Origin: Eledone cirrhosa
Taxonomy: Eukaryota
Direction of reading: 5' to 3'
Length of the DNA stretch: 64,000 nucleotides
NCBI GenBank assembly: GCA_964016885.1
Contig: OZ024740.1
Coordinates: 176,886,001 to 176,950,000, forward strand
The position numbers and the translations under genes were made by a program. The notes under the pieces were generated by a model. The model ran no database searches, had not been told where the DNA came from, and saw only the letters and a program-made list of their open reading frames with translations. Positions 4,060-34,760 of this stretch are shown piece after piece. The number at the start of each line of letters is the position of its first letter. Position 1 is the stretch's first letter.

Positions 4060-4926
4060 GACGTACATACATATATGTACATACATATACGTACAAAAAT
4101 ATATGTATACAGACGTACAGTAGTATGTATATATATACATACATGCGCACATATATATATGTACGTATGGGTTTATTATAGTGTTCGGTTTGTTTGTAAA
4201 CAAACATACGTATATATACTTACCTTTAAGCCGTACTAAGAGTGAGAAATTTCATTCAATTTCATTCTTTTCCATTTATCGTTTTCGGCGCCCGGCCGAC
4301 TAACTCACTCGATATGCAAATTAGGCTGCTCAGCCGTTAATATGCATAAGGAAAGTATATACTTTCAGACGTTCAACCATCTGGCAGGAAGGTATACGAT
4401 GCTGACGATAGCTAATAAGCTTGAAACTAGTTCATCGTTCCTTTGTCAGTGTTGAACAAAAGGGCGACGATGGTTGCCGAACACCGTATGGCTTAATTTC
4501 GGGCTGTTTGTTTACAAACAAACCGAACATTATAATAAATGTTCGGTAAACCCACACGTACATATATATATATGTGTGCATGTATGTATATATATACATA
4601 CTACTGTACGTCTATATACATATATGCATGTACGTATACATACTTACATTTAAGTATCAGCCGTACTAAGAGTGAGAAATTAAATTTCATTTCATTCTTT
4701 TCCATTTATCGTTTTCGGTACGCCCGGCCGACTAACTCACTCGATATGCAAATTAGGCTGCTCAGCCGTTAATATGCATAAGGAAAGTATATACTTTCAA
4801 ACGTTCAATCATCTGACAGGAAGGTATACGGTGGTGACGATAGGTAATAAACTTACATGTAAGTATACTTACATGTAAGTATCAGCCGTACTAAGAGTGA
4901 GAAATGAAATTTCATTTCATTCTTTT

Positions 4927-4930
<4 letters not shown>
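4060..4930 (+). mobile_element. Retrozyme-like HHR repeat, family B, locus 1 (about 430-bp unit; short inverted left arm 4060-4205)
   Basis: aagagtgagaaat recurs at 4238 and 4668; HHR at 4396; octamer at 4314-4321; homologous to 15312-16533. Confidence 0.8.
4396..4438 (+). ncRNA. Minimal type I hammerhead ribozyme (family B)
   Basis: acgatg-CTGACGA-t agct aata agct t-GAAA-ctag-TT-catcgt; palindromic stem III. Confidence 0.85.
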
Positions 4931-4971
<41 letters not shown>

Positions 4972-15311: not shown

Positions 15312-15316
<5 letters not shown>

Positions 15317-16528
15317 AGTATGTATGTATGTATACGTACATACATATATGTATACAGACGTACAGTAGTATGTATATATATACATACATGCACACACATA
15401 TATATATACGTATGGATTTACCGAACGTTTATTATAATGCTCGGTGTGTTTGTAAACAAACATCCCGAATTAAGCCGTACAGTGTTTAGCAACCATCGTT
15501 GCTCTTTTGTTCAACACTGACAGAGGAACGATGTACTAGTTTCAAGCTTATTAGCTATCGTCAGCATCGTATACCTTCCTGCCAGATGGTTGAACGTCTG
15601 AAAGTATATACTTTCCTTATGCATATTAACGGCTGAGCAGCCTAATTTGCATATCGAGTTAGTTCAGTCAGCCGGGCACACCGAAAACGATAAATGGAAT
15701 AGAATGAAACGAAATTTCATATCTCACTCTTAGGACGGCACTTACTTAAATGTAAGTATGTATGTATGTATATGTACATACATATATGTATACAGACGTA
15801 CAGTAGTTTGTATACATATATACATACATGCACACATATATATATATGCACGTATCGGTTTACCAAATATTTATTACAATGCTCGGTTTGTCCGTTTGTA
15901 AACAAACAAACAGCCCGAATTACGCCGTACAGTGTTTAGGCAAACACGTCAACTTTTTGTTCAACACTGACACATGAACGATGTACTAGTTTCATGCTTA
16001 TAACTATCGTCAGCATCGTGTACCTTCCTGCAAGATGGTTGAACGTCTGAAAGTATATATTTCCTTATGCATATTAACGGCTGAGCAGCCTAATTTGCAT
16101 ATCGAGTGAGTTCAGTCGGCCGGGCACACCGAAAACGATAAATGGAATAGAATGAAACGAAATTTCATTTCACACTCTTAGTGCGGCACTTACTTAAATG
16201 TAAGTATGTATGTATACGTACATACATATATGTATACAGACGTACAGTAGTATGTATATATATTCATACATGCACACATATATATATGCACGTATCGGTT
16301 TACCGAACATTTATTACGATGCTGACGATAGCTAATAAGCTTGAAATAGTGTAATAAATGTTCGGTAAACCGATACGTGCATATATATATATGTGCATGT
16401 ATGTATATATAGGCATACTACTGTACGTCTGTATACATATATGTATGTACGTATACATACATACATACTTACATTTAAGTAAGTGCCGTACTAAGAGTGA
16501 GAAATAAAATTTCGTTTCATTCTATTCC

Positions 16529-16533
<5 letters not shown>
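15312..16533. mobile_element. Retrozyme-like HHR repeat, family B, locus 2 (about 450-bp unit; minus arm to 16316, then plus arm)
   Basis: HHRs at 15528-15570 and 15978-16019 (-); partial HHR at about 16317-16350 (+) at the inversion; flanked by (AT)n. Confidence 0.85.
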
Positions 16534-16615: not shown

Positions 16616-16872
16616 TATAAAATAGATGTTCTTTTGATCAATTACATTTTATTATACATATTTCGGATGTACAACAGTACGTCCTCATCAGACAAAATAT
16701 AATGATACATGACATACCCTGAGATGTTAAATGGTTAAGATTTAATCACTTGACCATTTAACATCTCAGGGTATGTCATGTATCATTATATTTTGTCTGA
16801 TGAGGACGTACTGTTGTACATCCGAAATACGTATAATAAAATGTAATTGATCAAAAGAACATCTATTATATT
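16608..16872. mobile_element. Palindromic PLE-type terminal repeat with HHRs
   Basis: Inverted arms centred near 16745. Confidence 0.8.
16786..16846 (+). ncRNA. Type I hammerhead ribozyme
   Basis: ttatattttgt-CTGATGA-ggacgtac tgtt gtacatcc-GAAA-tacgta-TA-ataaaatgtaa. Confidence 0.85.
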
Positions 16873-17469: not shown

Positions 17470-17529
<60 letters not shown>

Positions 17530-17744
17530 GTTAAAAATGTACATCCACATATGTATACTGAAATACTAGTATGCATATGAATACACACACGTGTACATAT
17601 GTAGATGTACCGAGTTTTTCACTGGACACTTTACTGTGAGTGTCCAGCTATTCTGTATGTAAACACACAGACAAACCGGTTTTTAGAGTCATACTGGTTT
17701 TCGAGGAAACACCTTTCCTCTATTCTCCAGAAAGCCAGACAAGG

Positions 17745-17789
17745 AATATTGGACTAGTTTCGATGTTGTTACATCTCATCAGCAATATT
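17745..17789 (-). ncRNA. Minimal type I HHR, left arm (also 18211, 18677, 19143, 19609, 20075)
   Basis: Reverse complement of aatattg-CTGATGA-gatgt aaca acatc-GAAA-ctag-TC-caatatt. Confidence 0.92.
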
Positions 17790-20484
17790 TACCTATCTTC
17801 CGGCCTTTCTAGAGAATCGTAAAAGCACATATCGTTATATGCTTTTTCTATGAAAATTAGTAGTGGGCAGACTAATTTGCATAGAGCGTGAGTACGTACC
17901 GGTTCAGCGGAGACGATAAAAACAAATAACGAAACGAAATTAAATTTCGTTTCGTTTGTAACTCACTTTTGTATGACTGACGCTTAAACAATTAAGTTAA
18001 AAATGTACATCCACATATGTATACTGAAATACTAGTATGCATATGAATACACACACGTGTACATATGTAGATGTACCGAGTTTTTCACTGGACACTTTAC
18101 TGTGAGTGTCCAGCTATTCTGTATGTAAACACACAGACAAACCGGTTTTTAGAGTCATACTGGTTTTCGAGGAAACACCTTTCCTCTATTCTCCAGAAAG
18201 CCAGACAAGGAATATTGGACTAGTTTCGATGTTGTTACATCTCATCAGCAATATTTACCTATCTTCCGGCCTTTCTAGAGAATCGTAAAAGCACATATCG
18301 TTATATGATTTTTCTATGAAAATTAGTAGTGGGCAGACTAATTTGCATAGAGCGTGAGTACGTACCGGTTCAGCGGAGACGATAAAAACAAATAACGAAA
18401 CGAAATTAAATTTCGTTTCGTTTGTAACTCACTTTTGTATGACTGACGCTTAAACAATTAAGTTAAAAATGTACATCCACATATGTATACTGAAATACTA
18501 GTATGCATATGAATACACACACGTGTACATATGTAGATGTACCGAGTTTTTCACTGGACACTTTACTGTGAGTGTCCAGCTATTCTGTATGTAAACACAC
18601 AGACAAACCGGTTTTTAGAGTCATACTGGTTTTCGAGGAAACACCTTTCCTCTATTCTCCAGAAAGCCAGACAAGGAATATTGGACTAGTTTCGATGTTG
18701 TTACATCTCATCAGCAATATTTACCTATCTTCCGGCCTTTCTAGAGAATCGTAAAAGCACATATCGTTATATGCTTTTTCTATGAAAATTAGTAGTGGGC
18801 AGACTAATTTGCATAGAGCGTGAGTACGTACCGGTTCAGCGGAGACGATAAAAACAAATAACGAAACGAAATTAAATTTCGTTTCGTTTGTAACTCACTT
18901 TTGTATGACTGACGCTTAAACAATTAAGTTAAAAATGTACATCCACATATGTATACTGAAATACTAGTATGCATATGAATACACACACGTGTACATATGT
19001 AGATGTACCGAGTTTTTCACTGGACACTTTACTGTGAGTGTCCAGCTATTCTGTATGTAAACACACAGACAAACCGGTTTTTAGAGTCATACTGGTTTTC
19101 GAGGAAACACCTTTCCTCTATTATCCAGAAAGCCAGACAAGGAATATTGGACTAGTTTCGATGTTGTTACATCTCATCAGCAATATTTACCTATCTTCCG
19201 GCCTTTCTAGAGAATCGTAAAAGCACATATCGTTATATGCTTTTTCTATGAAAATTAGTAGTGGGCAGACTAATTTGCATAGAGCGTGAGTACGTACCGG
19301 TTCAGCGGAGACGATAAAAACAAATAACGAAACGAAATTAAATTTCGTTTCGTTTGTAACTCACTTTTGTATGACTGACGCTTAAACAATTAAGTTAAAA
19401 ATGTACATCCACATATGTATACTGAAATACTAGTATGCATATGAATACACACACGTGTACATATGTAGATGTACCGAGTTTTTCACTGGACACTTTACTG
19501 TGAGTGTCCAGCTATTCTGTATGTAAACACACAGACAAACCGGTTTTTAGAGTCATACTGGTTTTCGAGGAAACACCTTTCCTCTATTCTCCAGAAAGCC
19601 AGACAAGGAATATTGGACTAGTTTCGATGTTGTTACATCTCATCAGCAATATTTACCTATCTTCCGGCCTTTCTAGAGAATCGTAAAAGCACATATCGTT
19701 ATATGCTTTTTCTATGAAAATTAGTAGTGGGCAGACTAATTTGCATAGAGCGTGAGTACGTACCGGTTCAGCGGAGACGATAAAAACAAATAACGAAACG
19801 AAATTAAATTTCGTTTCGTTTGTAACTCACTTTTGTATGACTGACGCTTAAACAATTAAGTTAAAAATGTACATCCACATATGTATACTGAAATACTAGT
19901 ATGCATATGAATACACACACGTGTACATATGTAGATGTACCGAGTTTTTCTCTGGACACTTTACTGTGAGTGTCCAGCTATTCTGTATGTAAACACACAG
20001 ACAAACCGGTTTTTAGAGTCATACTGGTTTTCGAGGAAACACCTTTCCTCTATTCTCCAGAAAGCCAGACAAGGAATATTGGACTAGTTTCGATGTTGTT
20101 ACATCTCATCAGCAATATTTACCTATCTTCCGGCCTTTCTAGAGAATCGTAAAAGCACATATCGTTATATGCTTTTTCTATGAAAACCAGTTTTCCTCGA
20201 AAACCAGTATGACTCTAAAAACCGGTTTGTCTGTGTGTTTACATACAGAATAGCTGGACACTCACAGTAAAGTGTCCAGTGAAAAACTCGGTACATCTAC
20301 ATATGTACACGTGTGTGTATTCATATGCATACTAGAATTTCAGTATACATATGTGGATGTACATTTTTAACTTAATTGTTTAAGCGTCAGTCATACAAAA
20401 GTGAGTTACAAACGAAACGAAATTTAATTTCGTTTCGTTATTTGTATTTATCGTCTCCGCTGAACCGGTACGTACTCACGCTCT

Positions 20485-20492
20485 ATGCAAAT
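20485..20492 (+). promoter_or_regulatory. Octamer ATGCAAAT in each array unit, about 90 nt upstream of the HHR
   Basis: Exact octamer, also kept in family B (4314-4321); function is inferred only. Confidence 0.45.
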
Positions 20493-20577
20493 TAGTCTGC
20501 CCACTACTAATTTTCATAGAAAAAGCATATAACGATATGTGCTTTTACGATTCTCTAGAAAGGCCGGAAGATAGGTA

Positions 20578-20622
20578 AATATTGCTGATGAGATGTAACA
20601 ACATCGAAACTAGTCCAATATT
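20578..20622 (+). ncRNA. Minimal type I HHR, right arm (also 21044, 21510, 21978, 22444, 22910, 23376, 23844)
   Basis: aatattg-CTGATGA-gatgt aaca acatc-GAAA-ctag-TC-caatatt; GUC cleavage triplet; two copies read CTGACGA. Confidence 0.92.
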
Positions 20623-23600
20623 CCTTGTCTGGCTTTCTGGAGAATAGAGGAAAGGTGTTTCCTCGAAAACCAGTATGACTCTAAAAACCGGTTTGTCTGT
20701 GTTTTTACATTCAGAATAGCTGGACACTCACAGTAAAGTGTCCAGTGAAAAACTCGGTACATCTACATATGTACACGTGTGTGTATTCATATGCATACTA
20801 GTATTTCAGTATACATATGTGGATGTACATTTTTAACTTAATTGTTTAAGCGTCAGTCATACAAAAGTGAGTTACAAACGAAACGAAATTTAATTTCGTT
20901 TCGTTATTTGTTTTTATCGTCTCCGCTGAACCGGTACGTACTCACGCTCTATGCAAATTAGTCTGCCCACTACTAATTTTCATAGAAAAAGCATATAACG
21001 ATATGTGCTTTTACGATTCTCTAGAAAGGCCGGAAGATAGGTAAATATTGCTGATGAGATGTAACAACATCGAAACTAGTCCAATATTCCTTGTCTGGCT
21101 TTCTGGAGAATAGAGGAAAGGTGTTTCCTCGAAAGCCAGTATGACTCTAAAAACCGGTTTGTCTGTGTGTTTACATACAGAATAGCTGGACACTCACAGT
21201 AAAGTGTCCAGTGAAAAACTCGGTACATGTACATATGTACACGTGTGTGTATTCATATGCATACTAGTATTTCAGTATACATATGTGGATGTACATTTTT
21301 AACTTAATTGTTTAAGCGTCAGTCATACAAAAGTGAGTTACAAACGAAACGAAATTTAATTTCGTTTCGTTATTTGTTTTTATCGTCTCCGCTGAACCGG
21401 TACGTACTCACGCTCTATGCAAATTAGTCTGCCCACTACTAATTTTCATAGAAAAAGCATATAACGATATGTGCTTTTACGATTCTCTAGAAAGGCCGGA
21501 AGATAGGTAAATATTGCTGACGAGATGTAACAACATCGAAACTAGTCCAATATTCCTTGTCTGGCTTTCTGGAGAATAGAGGAAAGGTGTTTCCTCGAAA
21601 ACCAGTATGACTCTAAAAACCGGTTTGTCTGTGTGTTTACATACAGAATAGCTGGACACTCACAGTAAAGTGTCCACTGAAAAACTCGGTACATCTACAT
21701 ATGTACACGTGTGTGTATTCATATGCATACTAGTATTTCAGTATACATATGTGGATGTACACTTTTTTAACTTAATTGTTTAAGCGTCAGTCATACAAAA
21801 GTGAGTTACAAACGAAACGAAATTTAATTTCGTTTCGTTATTTGTTTTTATCGTCTCCGCTGAACCGGTACGTACTCACGCTCTATGCAAATTAGTCTGC
21901 CCACTACAAATTTTCATAGAAAAAGCATATAACGATATGTGCTTTTACGATTCTCTAGAAAGGCCGGAAGATAGGTAAATATTGCTGATGAGATGTAACA
22001 ACATCGAAACTAGTCCAATATTCCTTGTCTGGCTTTCTGGAGAATAGAGGAAAGGTGTTTCCTCGAAAACCAGTATGACTCTAAAAACCGGTTTGTCTGT
22101 GTGTTTACATTCAGAATAGCTGGACACTCACAGTAAAGTGTCCAGTGAAAAACTCGGTACATCTACATATGTACACGTGTGTGTATTCATATGCATACTA
22201 GTATTTCAGTATACATATGTGGATGTACATTTTTAACTTAATTGTTTAAGCGTCAGTCATACAAAAGTGAGTTACAAACGAAACGAAATTTAATTTCGTT
22301 TCGTTATTTGTTTTTATCGTCTCCGCTGAACCGGTACGTACTCACGCTCTATGCAAATTAGTCTGCCCACTACTAATTTTCATAGAAAAAGCATATAACG
22401 ATATGTGCTTTTACGATTCTCTAGAAAGGCCGGAAGATAGGTAAATATTGCTGATGAGATGTAACAACATCGAAACTAGTCCAATATTCCTTGTCTGGCT
22501 TTCTGGAGAATAGAGGAAAGGTGTTTCCTCGAAAACCAGTATGACTCTAAAAACCGGTTTGTCTGTGTGTTTACATTCAGAATAGCTGGACACTCACAGT
22601 AAAGTGTCCAGTGAAAAACTCGGTACATCTACATATGTACACGTGTGTGTATTCATATGCATACTAGTATTTCAGTATACATATGTGGATGTACATTTTT
22701 AACTTAATTGTTTAAGCGTCAGTCATACAAAAGTGAGTTACAAACGAAACGAAATTTAATTTCGTTTCGTTATTTGTTTTTATCGTCTCCGCTGAACCGG
22801 TACGTACTCACGCTCTATGCAAATTAGTCTGCCCACTACTAATTTTCATAGAAAAAGCATATAACGATATGTGCTTTTACGATTCTCTAGAAAGGCCGGA
22901 AGATAGGTAAATATTGCTGATGAGATGTAACAACATCGAAACTAGTCCAATATTCCTTGTCTGGCTTTCTGGAGAATAGAGGAAAGGTGTTTCCTCGAAA
23001 GCCAGTATGACTCTAAAAACCGGTTTGTCTGTGTGTTTACATACAGAATAGCTGGACACTCACAGTAAAGTGTCCAGTGAAAAACTCGGTACATCTACAT
23101 ATGTACACGTGTGTGTATTCATATGCATACTAGTATTTCAGTATACATATGTGGATGTACATTTTTAACTTAATTGTTTAAGCGTCAGTCATACAAAAGT
23201 GAGTTACAAACGAAACGAAATTTAATTTCGTTTCGTTATTTGTTTTTATCGTCTCCGCTGAACCGGTACGTACTCACGCTCTATGCAAATTAGTCTGCCC
23301 ACTACTAATTTTCATAGAAAAAGCATATAACGATATGTGCTTTTACGATTCTCTAGAAAGGCCGGAAGATAGGTAAATATTGCTGACGAGATGTAACAAC
23401 ATCGAAACTAGTCCAATATTCCTTGTCTGGCTTTCTGGAGAATAGAGGAAAGGTGTTTCCTCGAAAGCCAGTATGACTCTAAAAACCGGTTTGTCTGTGT
23501 GTTTACATACAGAATAGCTGGACACTCACAGTAAAGTGTCCAGTGAAAAACTCGGTACATCTACATATGTACACGTGTGTGTATTCATATGCATACTAGT

Positions 23601-24176
23601 ATTTCAGTATACATATGTGGATGTACACTTTTTTAACTTAATTGTTTAAGCGTCAGTCATACAAAAGTGAGTTACAAACGAAACGAAATTTAATTTCGTT
23701 TCGTTATTTGTTTTCATCGTCTCCGCTGAACCGGTACGTACTCACGCTCTATGCAAATTAGTCTGCCCACTACTAATTTTCATAGAAAAAGCATATAACG
23801 ATATGTGCTTTTACGATTCTCTAGAAAGGCCGGAAGATAGGTAAATATTGCTGATGAGATGTAACAACATCGAAACTAGTCCAATATTCCTTGTCTGGCT
23901 TTCTGAAGAATAGAGGAAAGGTGTTTCCTCGAAAACCAGTATGTCTCTAAAAACCGGTTTGTCTGTGTGTTTACATACAGAATAGCTGGACACTCACAGT
24001 AAAGTGTCCAGTGAAAAACTCGGTACATCTACATATGTACACGTGTGTGTATTCATATGCATACTAGTATTTCAGTATACATATGTGGATGTACATTTTT
24101 AACTTAATTGTTTAAGCGTCAGTCATACAAAAGTCAGTTACAAACGAAACGAAATTTAATTTCGTTTCGTTATTTG

Positions 24177-24238
<62 letters not shown>

Positions 24239-24649
24239 TATTAAGTTGTTAAACAATATTCGATGATTATGTCAAAGAATGAGTTTTACAGTAGATTGGA
24301 AGCACTCAACGAATAATAATAATAATATATATATATATATATATATATACACAGTTCAAGAGTAAGCAATCTTAAAGAGAGAGATGGAGATAGGAGAGGA
24401 GAGATTGGTGAATTTGTTAGAAGCCAAAGCGTAAAGGCATGTGCTCAATGTGCAATATGCTGTAGAAAGCAGCTAGGTGGTTGGGTTCATGCAGACGTTA
24501 GGCGCGCAGAGCTGGAAATATTCATTAGTTAAGCAAAACAAGACCATAAATTTCACAAGGAAGACATTATTAAAAGATTGTCAACATATTTTAGTTTGAT
24601 GTAAGGTATGTAGAGAATAATAATAATAATATTAATAATAATAATGTCC

Positions 24650-26277: not shown

Positions 26278-26340
26278 ATTTTGTCTGATGAAGGCATACC
26301 ATAATGTAACTTGGTATCCTTGAAATATATATAATGAAAT
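26278..26340 (+). ncRNA. Type I HHR in a dispersed repeat of about 240 bp (26230-26470; second copy 59930-60170)
   Basis: attttgt-CTGATGA-aggcatacca...tggtatcctt-GAAA-tatata-TA-atgaaat. Confidence 0.8.
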
Positions 26341-30573: not shown

Positions 30574-31752
30574 ATGGCTAACCAGCAAAAATCCAAACAG
30601 AACTGGTCTGATAATGAAATCGACATTCTAATAAACACATGGCATTGCCTTTCCCAAACAGAAGATATAGATGCTTCATCTCTGAACGACATTGCTAAAC
30701 GTACAGTTCAATTTTTGAAAACTCGATCTGAACAACAGATTCAAAATAAATTAAAGCAAATCGAAATTGCTTTTAAATTAATCAATAAACATTTGGATAA
30801 ACTACGGTGTGTTTTCTCTTCGAATGCTGTCCAGCAGCAGCAACAACAACAACAGCAGCTACAACAGCAACAACAACAACAACAGCAGCTACAACAGCAA
30901 CAACAACAACAGCTACAACAACAACATCAACAACAGCTACAACAACAACATCAACAACAGCAACAACAACAGTGTGAACCACTCCTTGATTCATCAACAA
31001 TGGCCGATCTACTAAATGAAACTATTGACCCCCCAGTAGCCTCTGTCTCACAGCATGAAACGCCACATACTTTCTCTGGCCCAGCAGTCCAATCATCACC
31101 ACTGCCAACATCTCTGCCTACTACTACTACTACTACTACAACATTTTTGTCTACTGCTATGTCAAGGAATTTACCTTCTAATACCAGAACAAGAACTCTC
31201 CCTCCCACAGTCCACAAAGGTCGTCAAATCCTACCCAAACCATCATCTACACCTCTCACAACACCCACACCCATATACCCACCCACTCGAAACCCCATCA
31301 TTTGCCGCTACTCTCTACGCTATAGAATATGTACGGATAGTGGCTGCAAATTCACCCATTTACCTAGGACAAAACGATCTATCCCCACAAACAGCCACCA
31401 CCATAATACATACTCTAATTTAACACCAACACAACCACCAATAACTCAAACAAGGAATCCACAAATCTGCCGTTTTTCCCTGCGAGACAGATTGTGTTTA
31501 GACCGGGATTGTCCCTTTACCCATCTCCCGGGGACCCGTCGGATAAATGAAAATAAAAGCAAAAACAAAAACCATAACCTACATAAAAATAACCACTACC
31601 ACAGTCACCAACAGTCTTCTAAACAGGAAACTTCTTCCTCTTTTTTAGCCATAATGAATCTGGCAAAAGAACTGGAAAAAAACATTCGAGCTATCACCCA
31701 GCACCACCCTCCACTATCACCCCACTGCACAAACTCCCATTGCTGCCATTAA
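30574..31752 (+). CDS. LINE ORF1: Myb/trihelix-like N-terminus, polyQ tract, two CCCH zinc fingers
   Basis: WSDNEIDILINTW...RSEQQIQNKLKQI; C-x8-C-x4-C-x3-H twice (CRYSLRYRICTDSGCKFTH, CRFSLRDRLCLDRDCPFTH). Confidence 0.8.
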   Translation: MANQQKSKQNWSDNEIDILINTWHCLSQTEDIDASSLNDIAKRTVQFLKTRSEQQIQNKLKQIEIAFKLINKHLDKLRCVFSSNAVQQQQQQQQQLQQQQQQQQQLQQQQQQQLQQQHQQQLQQQHQQQQQQQCEPLLDSSTMADLLNETIDPPVASVSQHETPHTFSGPAVQSSPLPTSLPTTTTTTTTFLSTAMSRNLPSNTRTRTLPPTVHKGRQILPKPSSTPLTTPTPIYPPTRNPIICRYSLRYRICTDSGCKFTHLPRTKRSIPTNSHHHNTYSNLTPTQPPITQTRNPQICRFSLRDRLCLDRDCPFTHLPGTRRINENKSKNKNHNLHKNNHYHSHQQSSKQETSSSFLAIMNLAKELEKNIRAITQHHPPLSPHCTNSHCCH

Positions 31753-34700
31753 CAAACAAACAAATTAACAACACACCAAAACAATTAAAACCATCCACTC
31801 TCGCCTCTACATTTTTGCTTAACGCCCAAGGCATCAGCCCTTCCACCAATACTCAAAAATGGAAGATCAAATTCCTGGAGGACTGGATTGATGTCCATCC
31901 AAACCACATCCCTTTCTTCGTCCTCACTGAAACCCATCTCAGTAACCTCCACTTGGAAGCCGAGGTGAAAGTGAAAAATTTCAAAGCCATCCGTGCTGAT
32001 CGCGCTGGCAGAAGAAAGGGCGGAACTGCCATTTATGTCCATAATTCTTTCTCAACAGAGGCTATGAACATATTCACTAATGGATACTGTGAGGCAGTCA
32101 CTGTATTCAGTCAAACCAACAACCTATTAGTAGTTGGGCTCTATAGGCCACCCCAAACGCCTGTACCATGCTTCAAGGAATGCCTCAACAGCATAAAGTG
32201 TTTCATCCAAGAGTGTCACCCTGACAACATCTTAATGATGGGGGACTTCAACCTCCCCGGAGTTGACTGGTCCACAAACACCCTGCCACCAGGTTCTTCT
32301 GCCTCAACCTCTGACAGGGAAGCTGTGGAATCGCTTCTTGACTTCATGGATGATTTCTTCCTATCCCAACTAGTGCTCGAACCAACGAGGTGCCACAAAA
32401 ACGTCCTAGACTTAATTTTCAGCAATCACACTGACAATATCCACAATATTGCAGTGGAGAAAACTCTACTCTCTGATCATGACATGGTTCTCTGTGATCT
32501 GAGATTCCACCGTCCAATATACAAACCCAATGTCATTTCTCCTGTCCATCCGTTTGACGCTATGGATTTCCACAATGCAAACTGGGAAGCGATCAGTCAT
32601 GATCTTGCACATGTCGACTGGTCCTTCACGCACACTCATACACCCACTAACATCAAAAAGTCCTGGCAGACATTTGTGGACACTGTTACAAACATATGTG
32701 CTAAACACACCCCATTAAGAACTATAAACAAATCTAAGAGCAGAATCCCTAGAAATAGAAAAACGCTCATCAGAAAAATTAAGAGAACGAACAAAAAAAT
32801 CAACAATCTGAAATACTGTCAGCAGCAACACATCAACTTGACTGCCATTTCATCACTAGAGATTAAAAAACATAACCTCCAAAACAACATAATGTCCCTC
32901 ATCAACAATCAGAGAAGAGCTGAAGAGGCCTGGGCCATTGAGAAGATCAAACTCAATCCCAAAGTGTTCTTTTCATTTGCAAAAAAACACAAAATCACTG
33001 GCTCTACTGTTGGCCCTCTAATTGATGAAAATGGCACTCTTCAAGACAATGCTAAAACCATGGGTGAGATACTGCAGAAACAATACTGCTCTGTTTTCAG
33101 CAATCCTGATATGGCCGATCTGGGCTGTATCGGCGATGTTACTCCCCATTACACCTTATCGGACATAACGTTTGGCGCCCCTGATGTCTTGGCGGCAATA
33201 AAGGAAATCAAGCATAATTCAGCAGTAGGTCCCGATAGGTTCCCTGCTTGTGTCTTGAAGGCGTGTCAACACCAACTTGCTTCTCCTCTTGCCAATCTGT
33301 GGCGGAACTCACTGGATGCTGGATATGTGCCAGAAAACCTTCTATCCCAGTCTGTTGTCCCAGTTTTCAAAAAGGGAAACAAATCCCTTGCCGTGAATTA
33401 CAGTCCAATCTCACTCACCTCTCATATCATTAAGGTATTTGAGCGAGTGGTGAGATCGCGAATGACCCACTTCCTTGAGAGTAACAATATGCTGAACTCC
33501 AACCAGCATGGATTCCGTAATGGAAGGGATTGCCTGACGCAACTACTGCATCACTTTGATGACATTTTGAGAGCCTTGGGAGAGGGTTCCAACACTGATG
33601 TTATCTACCTTGATTTCAGCAAGGCCTTTGACAGGGTTGATCATAACATTCTACTGAGAAAGCTGTCCAATATTGGTGTCACTGGAAAGCTGCTGCAGTG
33701 GATCAAGAGCTTCCTGTCAAACAGAACCCAACATGTTGTAGTTGAGGGAGTCAAATCAAGCCCAGCCAAAGTCAGTAGTGGAGTCCCACAAGGCACTGTG
33801 TTGGGCCCACTTCTCTTCATCATCTATATTAATGACATCACTGACATCATCAAACACAGCAACATTAAAATTTTCGCTGATGATTCCAAGCTCCAAAAGG
33901 TCATCAATGGCGTGGATGACCGGATAAGCCTTCAGTCAGACCTACTGGCTGTTACCCAATGGGCAGAAAAGAACAACATGTTACTGAACGAAGACAAATT
34001 CGAACTGATCCACTTTGGAAAAGAGGATGCTCTGAAACTCCCGTACTCCCTTCCCTCCGGGGAAACTCTCGTGGCATCTAACAACATCAGAGACTTGGGA
34101 GTAACCGTGGACAGCAACATAAGCTGGACCACGCATATAAGCAGCAAAGTTGACATGGCCCGCAGAATGTGTTCCTGGATCCTCAGAACCTTCCAGTCGA
34201 GAGATTCCCGCACCATTATCCTTCTCTTCTCTACTTTCGCCCGACCACACCTTGAATACTGTTGTCCACTGTGGTCTCCCCACACGAAACAAAGTATCAT
34301 GAAACTTGAAGCTCCTCAAAGGGCAATCACGAAAAAGATAGATGGCATGTCAGACCTTGACTACTGGGGTCGATTGGAAAACCTGAAACTTTACTCACTC
34401 CAACGTCGCCGTGAGCGTTATATTATCTGCATGATGTGGAAAATGTTCCATCATCACTGCCCAAATGATGTTGGCATCGCCTTCAAGATACACCCAAGGC
34501 TTGGGCCCCGTGCTATCCGTCCCATTCAAAAATCTAAATCGCAACTCATAACAACAATACGGCACAATTATTTCACCTCAATCGGCCCTGCTCTCTTCAA
34601 CATCACACCAGGACACGTCAAAACAGAAACTGACCACACAAAATTCAAGAAGTCTTTGGACAAATTCCTCCAAGTAATCCCGGACAAACCACCCACACCC

Positions 34701-34760
34701 GGATATGTCTCCGCAAACAGTAATTCTCTTCTCGAATGGGCCATGGTGCCCAAATCCTGA
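31740..34760 (+). CDS. LINE ORF2: apurinic-like endonuclease + reverse transcriptase
   Basis: LNAQG, LTETHL, GDFN, LDLIF, SDH; DFSKAFD, GVPQGTVLGP, FADD. No ATG before the endonuclease motifs; frame open from 31623. Confidence 0.95.
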   Translation: MLPLTNKQINNTPKQLKPSTLASTFLLNAQGISPSTNTQKWKIKFLEDWIDVHPNHIPFFVLTETHLSNLHLEAEVKVKNFKAIRADRAGRRKGGTAIYVHNSFSTEAMNIFTNGYCEAVTVFSQTNNLLVVGLYRPPQTPVPCFKECLNSIKCFIQECHPDNILMMGDFNLPGVDWSTNTLPPGSSASTSDREAVESLLDFMDDFFLSQLVLEPTRCHKNVLDLIFSNHTDNIHNIAVEKTLLSDHDMVLCDLRFHRPIYKPNVISPVHPFDAMDFHNANWEAISHDLAHVDWSFTHTHTPTNIKKSWQTFVDTVTNICAKHTPLRTINKSKSRIPRNRKTLIRKIKRTNKKINNLKYCQQQHINLTAISSLEIKKHNLQNNIMSLINNQRRAEEAWAIEKIKLNPKVFFSFAKKHKITGSTVGPLIDENGTLQDNAKTMGEILQKQYCSVFSNPDMADLGCIGDVTPHYTLSDITFGAPDVLAAIKEIKHNSAVGPDRFPACVLKACQHQLASPLANLWRNSLDAGYVPENLLSQSVVPVFKKGNKSLAVNYSPISLTSHIIKVFERVVRSRMTHFLESNNMLNSNQHGFRNGRDCLTQLLHHFDDILRALGEGSNTDVIYLDFSKAFDRVDHNILLRKLSNIGVTGKLLQWIKSFLSNRTQHVVVEGVKSSPAKVSSGVPQGTVLGPLLFIIYINDITDIIKHSNIKIFADDSKLQKVINGVDDRISLQSDLLAVTQWAEKNNMLLNEDKFELIHFGKEDALKLPYSLPSGETLVASNNIRDLGVTVDSNISWTTHISSKVDMARRMCSWILRTFQSRDSRTIILLFSTFARPHLEYCCPLWSPHTKQSIMKLEAPQRAITKKIDGMSDLDYWGRLENLKLYSLQRRRERYIICMMWKMFHHHCPNDVGIAFKIHPRLGPRAIRPIQKSKSQLITTIRHNYFTSIGPALFNITPGHVKTETDHTKFKKSLDKFLQVIPDKPPTPGYVSANSNSLLEWAMVPKS

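Follow-up and report, generated by a model that had tools for sequence, protein, structure and literature searches.

The 466-bp repeat array described here represents a novel non-LTR retrozyme family; the supplementary lists of Cervera and de la Pena 2020 (PMC7229834) and of a 2026 survey (bioRxiv 10.64898/2026.07.22.740005) could hold a cephalopod family. We consider it probable that the enzyme which copies this family is that of a Penelope-like element (PLE), working mostly from RNA that has cleaved itself and been re-ligated into circles. Identity as a non-LTR retrozyme, proposed in the first-pass annotation, is supported by the tandem non-coding unit, the hammerhead ribozyme in each unit and the dispersal of the family. 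Insertion by a PLE enzyme, also proposed there, is supported by two fixed start sites, inverted arms and (TA)n targets. Support for a unit-length circular RNA is indirect. The implied novelty of kind was not supported: retrozymes and their link to PLEs are already in print (bioRxiv 10.64898/2026.07.22.740005; PMC7229834).

Architecture of the array and its ribozyme

The array lies in a window of 64,000 nucleotides, the whole stretch of DNA that was analysed, and has a period of 466 bp (99% matches). A 6.7-kb array is indeed present, but it is not the single tandem of 14 units that had been described: two inverted arms of 5.7 and 8.6 units stand head to head, and one transcript therefore cannot hold all 14 ribozymes in sense. 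Its parts are:

17470..17523, no strand: (TA)n target tract left of the array
17524..20186, minus strand: left arm, 5.7 units, ribozyme sense pointing leftwards
20187..20191, no strand: head-to-head junction, five extra letters between the arms
20192..24183, plus strand: right arm, 8.6 units, ribozyme sense pointing rightwards
20578..20622, plus strand: one type I hammerhead as an example, with cleavage predicted after 20615
24110..24183, plus strand: 'tail', ~70 nt from start site B to start site A
24184..24236, no strand: (TA)n target tract right of the array

With unit position 1 set at the first base past the cleavage site, the outer (3') end of the left arm is site B, at position 228, and the outer end of the right arm is site A, at position 301-302. 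The 'tail' is present at the right outer end only; the left end lacks it. Cleavage nucleotides fall at 17752, 18218, 18684, 19150, 19616 and 20082 in the left arm (n=6) and at eight positions spanning 20615-23881 in the right arm. The period and the 14 hammerhead copies reported earlier stand (14/14 cleavage junctions). Read on from the left arm's end, the five junction letters duplicate unit positions 50-59, and they may be a templated insert as in microhomology-type end joining. The right arm carries a later duplication of four units that is private to it: the variant sets 54G+440C and 215insCT recur four units apart there, and the left arm has neither.

The unit has a GC content of 0.36-0.37 and a predicted fold that is strongly self-paired (z = -9.85), with site B in the loop of a small hairpin and site A in an unpaired U-rich stretch after a 13-bp hairpin. 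As had been noted from the sequence, there is no credible protein ORF: across six frames of the repeated unit the longest stop-to-stop frame is 60 aa and the longest ATG frame 50 aa. The same six-frame check found no RT + GIY-YIG ORF in the unit, which is thus not an autonomous PLE, and none of the mapped loci of the family has an LTR-bounded body.

Every unit holds a type I hammerhead, as first described, with a 7-bp helix I, a 5-bp helix II, GAAA, ACUAGU and a GUC site (14/14); the core is CUGAUGA, replaced by CUGACGA in two of the 14. In the example copy, helix III amounts to a single A-U pair closed off by the palindromic CUAG, and a helix III this weak predicts slow cleavage of the monomer. 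Searching the window with the core pattern gives 17 matches (14 in the array, three in the sister family described below), and 100 shuffles give none. Pair probabilities predicted for helices I and II in a dimer context are 0.66-1.0. In the Rfam search of the window, which the first-pass annotation had proposed, no family reached its gathering score; Hammerhead_HH9 did align with the motif end to end (E 3e-8), at 38.9 bits against a gathering score of 52. Matches to miRNA families at the E-value threshold were discarded as hairpin noise. The Hammerhead_HH9 alignment runs the full length of the motif, bulged extension of helix I included, and the earlier term 'minimal' was not confirmed; a minimal PLE-type hammerhead is by definition one without helix III nucleotides or loop-loop contacts (PMC7761336). 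The ribozyme has a canonical appearance, and its helix III is weak and of amphibian type.

Conservation and helix covariation suggest that the ribozyme, whose cleavage is predicted, is under constraint. Pair 444/455 of helix II covaries, being A-U in 343/346 copies and U-A in 134/134, and only 16 of 3339 letters differ in CUGANGA, compared with 2.7% overall. Between the two families, three pairs are compensated in helix I and three in helix II, a covariation that mostly counts one divergence event. Helix I goes on past the bulge, loop 2 (UAAYAA) is kept across the families, and helix III is rudimentary. Each unit also contains the octamer ATGCAAAT (for instance 20485..20492, plus strand), which is exact in 521/562 context-matched copies and is kept in the alignment with the sister family. 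We tentatively take it to be a putative promoter element of snRNA type; this role is not established, as 12 identical nucleotides in a row, in a 450-nt alignment at 60% identity, come close to chance by our estimate.

Insertions and the two-site rule

The 466-nt family has at least 2,176 insertions, the number of exact junctions between site A and (TA) found genome-wide (control, 0). Arms range from less than one unit to 31 units, with a median of ~540 nt. Sites A and B, ~70 nt apart within the unit, occupy one outer end each, and the inner ends are randomly truncated. In a first set of 24 two-armed loci, length-biased and counted by eye, 22 had one A and one B end. A second sample of 97 loci was chosen solely by an A end and cannot show B-B ends; of the 86 that were resolved, 64 had A and B ends (an inverted arm ending at B in 56, a tiny B remnant in eight), seven had another end, 15 had no second arm, and none had a second A. 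The lengths of A and B arms are uncorrelated (rho -0.05, n=62), the B arm being the longer in 29/62. (TA)n adjoins nearly all outer ends in both sets; in the second sample, where TA next to the A end was a condition of selection, the B ends alone count for the target. The genome holds many families flanked by (TA)n. The outer-end pattern is the 'tail' of PLEs.

A sister retrozyme family, with a unit of ~450 nt that is ~60% identical to the 466-nt unit, is inserted twice in the window:

4191..4934, plus strand: second sister-family insertion; the plus arm stops at site A and (TA)n follows
15312..16532: sister-family insertion with both arms and (TA)n on either side
15312-16323, minus strand: minus arm of this insertion, ending at its own site B
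16350-16532, plus strand: plus arm of this insertion, ending at its own site A

The sister family follows the one-A-one-B rule in 12/20 loci, and two like ends occur in none. Two coding PLE families in the genome show the same end rule, which holds in eight loci where an element coding for RT + GIY-YIG has two arms, and intact-looking coding PLEs with this geometry coexist with the retrozymes. The tails of the sister family and of the local coding PLEs are ~58-60 nt long. Compared with these two coding families only, the 466-nt unit has no significant nucleotide similarity (best E 0.11), and none of 30 loci picked by the core motif, with 1.5-kb flanks, joins a coding PLE to such hammerheads. 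At one chimeric locus (L027) a coding PLE arm that ends at B stands head to head with a retrozyme arm that ends at A. Elsewhere a retrozyme arm replaces part of an older neighbour (L075), and a PLE piece is apparently joined to a retrozyme arm, giving two A ends (L124). Secondary insertion with target deletion can thus yield joins like L027, which we demoted from proof of a partner to a hint.

Template and route of insertion

The cleavage site is crossed by 128/163 arms, with 259 crossings in total. A pile-up of 5' ends at this site, suspected at first, was rejected on the full sample: 6/159 lie within 6 nt of it, compared with 4.1 expected (P=0.23), and the stop rate is below ~4.5% per crossing. 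Of the variants shared between the arms of 72 two-armed loci, 622 are fixed in every copy of both arms, against 21 that are mixed. Among rare variants, defined as present in at most 2/133 loci out of >2,000 and hence possibly marking small subfamilies from a homogeneous donor array, 20, found at 15 loci, are fixed in every one of 3-8 copies. The variants mixed across both arms comprise six rare and 21 common ones, many of the latter present in all copies but one. At four loci (L048, L058, L190 and L119) both arms have variant units in register, alongside units without the variants; the template there must have been a mixed multimer and cannot have been a monomer circle. Out-of-register shared variants occur at L144, L040, L049 and one site of L190. 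Taken together, the read-through of the cleavage site, the arm-wide fixed variants and the helix covariation favour a template that is circular and re-ligated, with mixed multimers copied at some loci. Later duplication has lengthened long arms as well, as nested, arm-private variant sets in the right arm of the window, L021_22 and a 31-unit arm show, and for this reason array length was rejected as proof of a rolling circle.

We propose that the array is transcribed and that the hammerheads then divide the RNA into units of 466 nt. Given the amphibian-type helix III, cutting would likely occur in ribozyme dimers formed via the ACUAGU palindrome, or with the help of protein; the units would then be ligated into circles. 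A PLE RT/GIY-YIG protein would cut both strands of (TA)n, the target seen at the insertions. One cut end would prime cDNA at A and the other at B, ~70 nt upstream, both on RNA of one sequence type; the end positions, the one-of-each rule and the shared variants are directly observed. Each cDNA would extend through cleavage junctions for an independent, random length, as the arms display, and the cDNA ends would be joined mid-element, often with the microhomology or short inserts visible at the junctions. Local duplication would later lengthen some arms, as seen in the repeated variant sets private to one arm. More tentatively, the arrays may be the genomic record of rolling-circle TPRT by an asymmetric PLE dimer on one ribozyme-made circle, with one start site per cut end and each active site rolling independently, written in ~40,000 ribozyme copies of two families.

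Twin priming by a PLE on an uncleaved linear multimer, with circles as a by-product and the hammerhead only freeing RNA from read-through transcripts, would account for the in-register mixed units at four loci, and fits the slow monomer cleavage predicted from the weak helix III. Linear dimers and trimers occur in axolotl tissues (PMC7229834), and unprocessed RNA is the main in vitro substrate of the anole PLE (PMC11167929). We nevertheless regard it as rather unlikely: arrays carry private rare singletons (191 in 72 loci), yet rare variants are seldom mixed across the arms of daughter insertions and 20 are fully fixed, which implies repeated passage through one unit. RNA ends made by cleavage would, moreover, gather 5' ends at the site, and no gathering is seen.

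In the model of Li, Clavereau and Pollet (bioRxiv 10.64898/2026.07.22.740005), pieces of about one unit mobilised by PLEs are inserted and arrays arise by later satellite expansion. The median arm of only ~540 nt and the duplicated variant sets described above agree with it. However, two young loci, L033 (16.4 units) and L034 (9.5 units), have many identical units in both arms and no variant, which would need fast and independent growth of each arm, and the variant units of L048 are in register at the penultimate positions of both arms, and so must already have been multimeric on insertion; we consider this model improbable for the 466-nt family. Still more improbable is an inverted structure due to fold-back, a MITE/foldback DNA transposon or an artefact of assembly. 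Assembly is difficult where long inverted arms lie in (TA)n, and some arrays of the family are on small contigs, but the arms differ in length and inner phase, carry private variants and have outer ends offset by a fixed distance, and both the sister family and the coding PLE copies show this geometry too. The randomly truncated inner ends are unlike terminal inverted repeats, and fold-back was rejected given the uncorrelated arm lengths.

Significance and relation to known systems

A 2020 review described animal non-LTR retrozymes as lacking a conserved motif that points to a mobilising element (PMC7761336), and the link to PLEs has so far consisted of co-occurrence and pLTR similarity (bioRxiv 10.64898/2026.07.22.740005). 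New here is genomic evidence for PLE mobilisation of retrozymes: the two-start-site footprint of a PLE in the insertions themselves, in thousands of copies, some very young. The in vitro assay already developed for PLEs can now be supplied with a defined RNA, two start sites, a target and candidate enzymes. The strictness of the one-A-one-B rule also limits how a PLE can work; the anole enzyme, assayed in vitro, does not differ in start site between strands (PMC11167929). If circles are the template, they offer a natural route for integrating multimers from circular RNA, and rolling-circle TPRT, if true, would decide which machinery mobilises retrozymes in animals and account for the in vivo tail of PLEs.

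Metazoan non-LTR retrozymes are known from coral, mussel, axolotl (Rtz_331/Rtz_353) and newt (satellite 2) (Cervera and de la Pena 2020, PMC7229834). The 466-nt family resembles them in its tandem non-coding unit with one type I hammerhead each, GC content of 36-37% and strongly self-paired fold, and its helix III is like that of HHR_Amex1, a single pair with a palindromic tetraloop cap (PMC7229834). The unit, known here from DNA alone, is longer than the RNAs of ~170-400 nt reported there, and lies inside the 51-972 bp range of the 2026 survey (bioRxiv 10.64898/2026.07.22.740005). Unlike metazoan retrozyme precedents, a weak helix III of amphibian type occurs here in an invertebrate, probably an octopod. 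A further difference from the retrozymes of PMC7229834, the main text of which does not contain the word 'inverted', is that the 466-nt family is dispersed as twin arrays that stand head to head in (TA)n and have two fixed ends.

PLEs with a C-terminal GIY-YIG domain include Poseidon PAc of Anolis (PMC11167929), Neptune/Naiad/Hydra (PMC8557442) and the Adineta Penelopes (PMC3846280). Like the 466-nt family, they have a hammerhead in the repeat, an arm that is both inverted and 5'-truncated, a tail confined to one of the two ends, targets that are AT-rich or (TA)n, and inner ends truncated at random. The family differs in that it has no ORF, each unit is a whole element, the tail is ~70 nt as opposed to 30-40 bp in published PLEs, and the hammerhead has a canonical rather than a minimal look. 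One purified PLE protein cleaves AT-rich DNA on both strands, extends each of them and begins reverse transcription at two internal sites, which define the tail; for the anole PLE, hammerhead cleavage is not needed in vitro (PMC11167929).

The non-autonomous PLEs of Chlamys (such as MRC1) are likewise non-coding PLE passengers with multicopy head-to-tail insertions, but have 3' sequence in common with an autonomous partner and no canonical hammerhead (PMC8557442), whereas no partner sequence link was found for the 466-nt family in the comparison with two coding PLE families. The pLTR-derived retrozymes of Xenopus also have a proposed dependence on PLEs and range from monomers to long multimers; only 1/9 of their dimers cleaved in vitro, and the word 'tail' is absent from the text (bioRxiv 10.64898/2026.07.22.740005). 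Their link to PLEs consists of pLTR similarity and co-occurrence (bioRxiv 10.64898/2026.07.22.740005), whereas that of the 466-nt family is the geometry of its insertions.

The inverted array and its predicted ribozyme

The array repeats with a period of 466 bp (99% matches) and carries 14 type I hammerheads, the core pattern of which had no match in 100 shuffles. No coding frame longer than 60 aa was found in the 466-bp unit. The repeat, the 14 hammerhead motifs and the lack of a credible protein ORF reported in the first-pass annotation are therefore confirmed, but the array is not a single tandem. It consists of two inverted arms, each bordered by (TA)n at its outer end:

17524-20186, ribozyme on the minus strand: left arm, 5.7 units
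20192-24183, ribozyme on the plus strand: right arm, 8.6 units

Unit positions are numbered from window 20616, the first base past the predicted cut.

The Rfam search that had been suggested for the ribozyme gave a divided answer: nothing in the window matched at gathering scores, but with an E-value threshold Hammerhead_HH9 aligned over its full model, including the stretch in which helix I carries on past a bulge (38.9 bits, E 3e-8; gathering score 52). Helix III has one A-U pair and a CUAG cap, in agreement with the description of axolotl HHR_Amex1, whose monomers cleave poorly and whose dimers cleave well (PMC7229834). In the energy model, a double hammerhead paired through ACUAGU reaches -16.4 kcal/mol, compared to +0.2 for one monomer. 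Because of the full-model alignment, the HHR_Amex1-like helix III and the dimer energy, we infer that the predicted ribozyme would be a canonical hammerhead whose helix III is weak, and not the minimal one initially proposed.

Pair 444/455 of helix II covaries across 133 loci (A/U in 343 and 346 copies, U/A in 134 and 134), nearly all variation at the cut nucleotide is between C and U, and the CUGANGA letters differ in 0.5% of cases versus 2.7% overall. Relative to a sister family, compensated pairs number three each in helix I and helix II, with few independent events behind them. The unit folds far better than its shuffles (z -9.85); folded as a circle it reaches -149.8, versus -93.3 +/- 5.4 for 40 shuffles.

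The window holds further elements. A perfect-looking inverted pair at 16617-16871, each arm of which bears a different hammerhead (predicted cuts 16653 minus and 16835 plus), with (TA)n on the left, is a small head-to-head PLE-type (Penelope-like element) insertion of another family. It has relatives at two other loci of the genome (L054, L097), and at 24237-24320, past the right-hand (TA)n tract, lies an inverted 84-bp piece of its family. Other hammerheads of type I, their helix III palindromic and AUAUAUAU-like, lie at 26333, 45464/45760, 57477 and 60032 near PLE ORF fragments, one inverted pair among them; they are probably ribozymes from the pLTRs of several PLE families. LINE-type ORFs occupy 31623-34757 (+; 1045 aa, endonuclease and RT domains) and 2-1732 (+; 577 aa, RT and zf-RVT).

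Ends and distribution of the insertions

Two sites mark the outer ends: B, at positions 226-234, where a small hairpin has its loop, and A, at positions 301-302 in an unpaired U-rich stretch; site A, site B and PLE-X are labels coined in this analysis. The first set, of 39 loci, is biased towards arrays that are long and young; of its 24 two-armed loci, 22 had one A and one B end (exceptions L032 and L044). The second sample comprised 97 of the first 100 places listed for an A end on contig C1, the other three being already among the loci analysed; two pairs were segmental duplicates, and 11 places extended past the retrieved sequence. Among the 86 resolved loci, the inverted arm ended at B in 56, while 8 showed a very small remnant of B, 7 had some other end and 15 a single arm. 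None had a second A end, in a sample picked by A ends where B-B pairs cannot show. Of 20 sister-family loci, 12 followed the A+B rule and none paired two like ends (counted by eye), and site B lies in or beside a short hairpin loop in the 466-bp unit, the sister unit and one further relative.

Inner ends are random, and arm lengths are uncorrelated. The 66 inner junctions comprise 33 overlaps, 9 blunt joints and 24 with extra letters (limits by BLAST). Where the arms meet head-to-head, four loci (L040, L033, L052, L055) carry short inserts, tandem or templated (for instance the repeated TCTAGAT in L040), which we take to resemble polymerase-theta-type end joining.

In the 3.0-Gb genome, a single-unit query gave 286 matches in the 40 of 375 candidates scored, and an exact pattern of one end plus TATA occurs 2,176 times, a lower bound on insertions. 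Subfamilies are 86 to 100% identical. The collinear sister family (unit about 440-540 nt, 56-62% identical to the 466-bp unit) has 3,050 candidate places, and a core pattern common to both families occurs 40,103 times (control, 4). Some sister units (484-538 nt; L231, L232 and L235-L238, at 5.04 and 5.54 Mb of G000 C1) contain an internal (TA)n within a long hairpin, variable in length between neighbours; the element therefore carries a copy of its own target. Among four public runs examined, with mostly low depths, X4 (organism B) contains the whole unit (95-99%) in a 495-nt contig closing on itself, as a tandem or circle would, and X10 and X14 contain the compensated helix II variant.

Template and mobilisation

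A cleaved linear monomer is ruled out as template, because 128 of 163 arms read through the cleavage site, where 5' ends do not pile up (6 of 159, versus 4.1 expected). No scars were seen in the cleavage-junction columns. In 72 two-armed loci (columns covered at least three times), 622 shared variants were fixed in all copies versus 21 mixed across arms; for rare variants, 20 were fixed throughout (15 loci; for example in 8/8 copies in L110 and L148 and 7/7 in L043 and L180) versus 6 mixed. Both arms of a locus derive from one sequence type. A re-ligated circle, probably the main template, is the best fit to the conservation of the ribozyme, the seamless read-through and the recurrent passage through a single unit. 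Against it, four loci have mixed units in register across both arms, and multimers were therefore sometimes copied. Further shared variants stand out of register; long arms, including the right arm in the window, are partly built by later duplication. L239-L240 (G000:C1:5738326-5752444) is a single insertion whose B arm has 31 units and whose A arm is shorter than one unit; its nested shared variants point to stepwise duplication.

The proposed re-insertion by a PLE is supported by the two-site ends, inverted arms and (TA)n flanks, and we consider PLE mobilisation very probable; that a circle is the template and a PLE the mobiliser together is somewhat less assured, yet favoured. Published hallmarks of PLEs are inverted arms that have, at one end, a tail of 30-40 bp (PMC8557442, PMC3846280), and a PLE in purified form cuts AT-rich DNA on both strands and extends both, starting at two internal sites whose spacing equals the genomic tail (PMC11167929).

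The 466-bp unit has no sequence similarity to coding PLEs in the two families compared, and many (TA)n-flanked families coexist in the genome. One local PLE protein has its nearest named relative in Octopus vulgaris (68%), which makes an octopod the probable host. A PLE/retrozyme chimera, L027, is suggestive of a partner and may be a secondary insertion; its PLE arm and the nearest copy of that arm are 99.1% alike. Near a retrozyme insertion, L027:6152-7273 (+) has a 374-aa frame ending in C2H2 zinc-finger-like repeats (by eye). One coding PLE (L158:3990-7193 (+), L163, L167, L170) has a long N-terminal insert rich in asparagine and invites comparison with the Adineta Penelopes (PMC3846280); in its tandem copies, outer site A lies at an ATG directly past the tail.

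Relation to known retrozymes

By sequence criteria, the 466-bp family would be classed as a non-LTR retrozyme. Each unit contains an octamer, which may be an element of snRNA-promoter type. The snRNA-type promoter of newt satellite 2, cited in PMC2220036, may by analogy offer a lead for this octamer. No publication on the 466-bp family or on tail-bearing inverted retrozyme insertions was found in the literature searched, which included few subscription papers; the novelty suggested at first pass holds for the family but not for its kind, since retrozymes and a proposed PLE link are already in print (bioRxiv 10.64898/2026.07.22.740005, PMC7229834). The 466-bp repeat is a real new family of a known kind, for which the evidence on movement is unusually clear.
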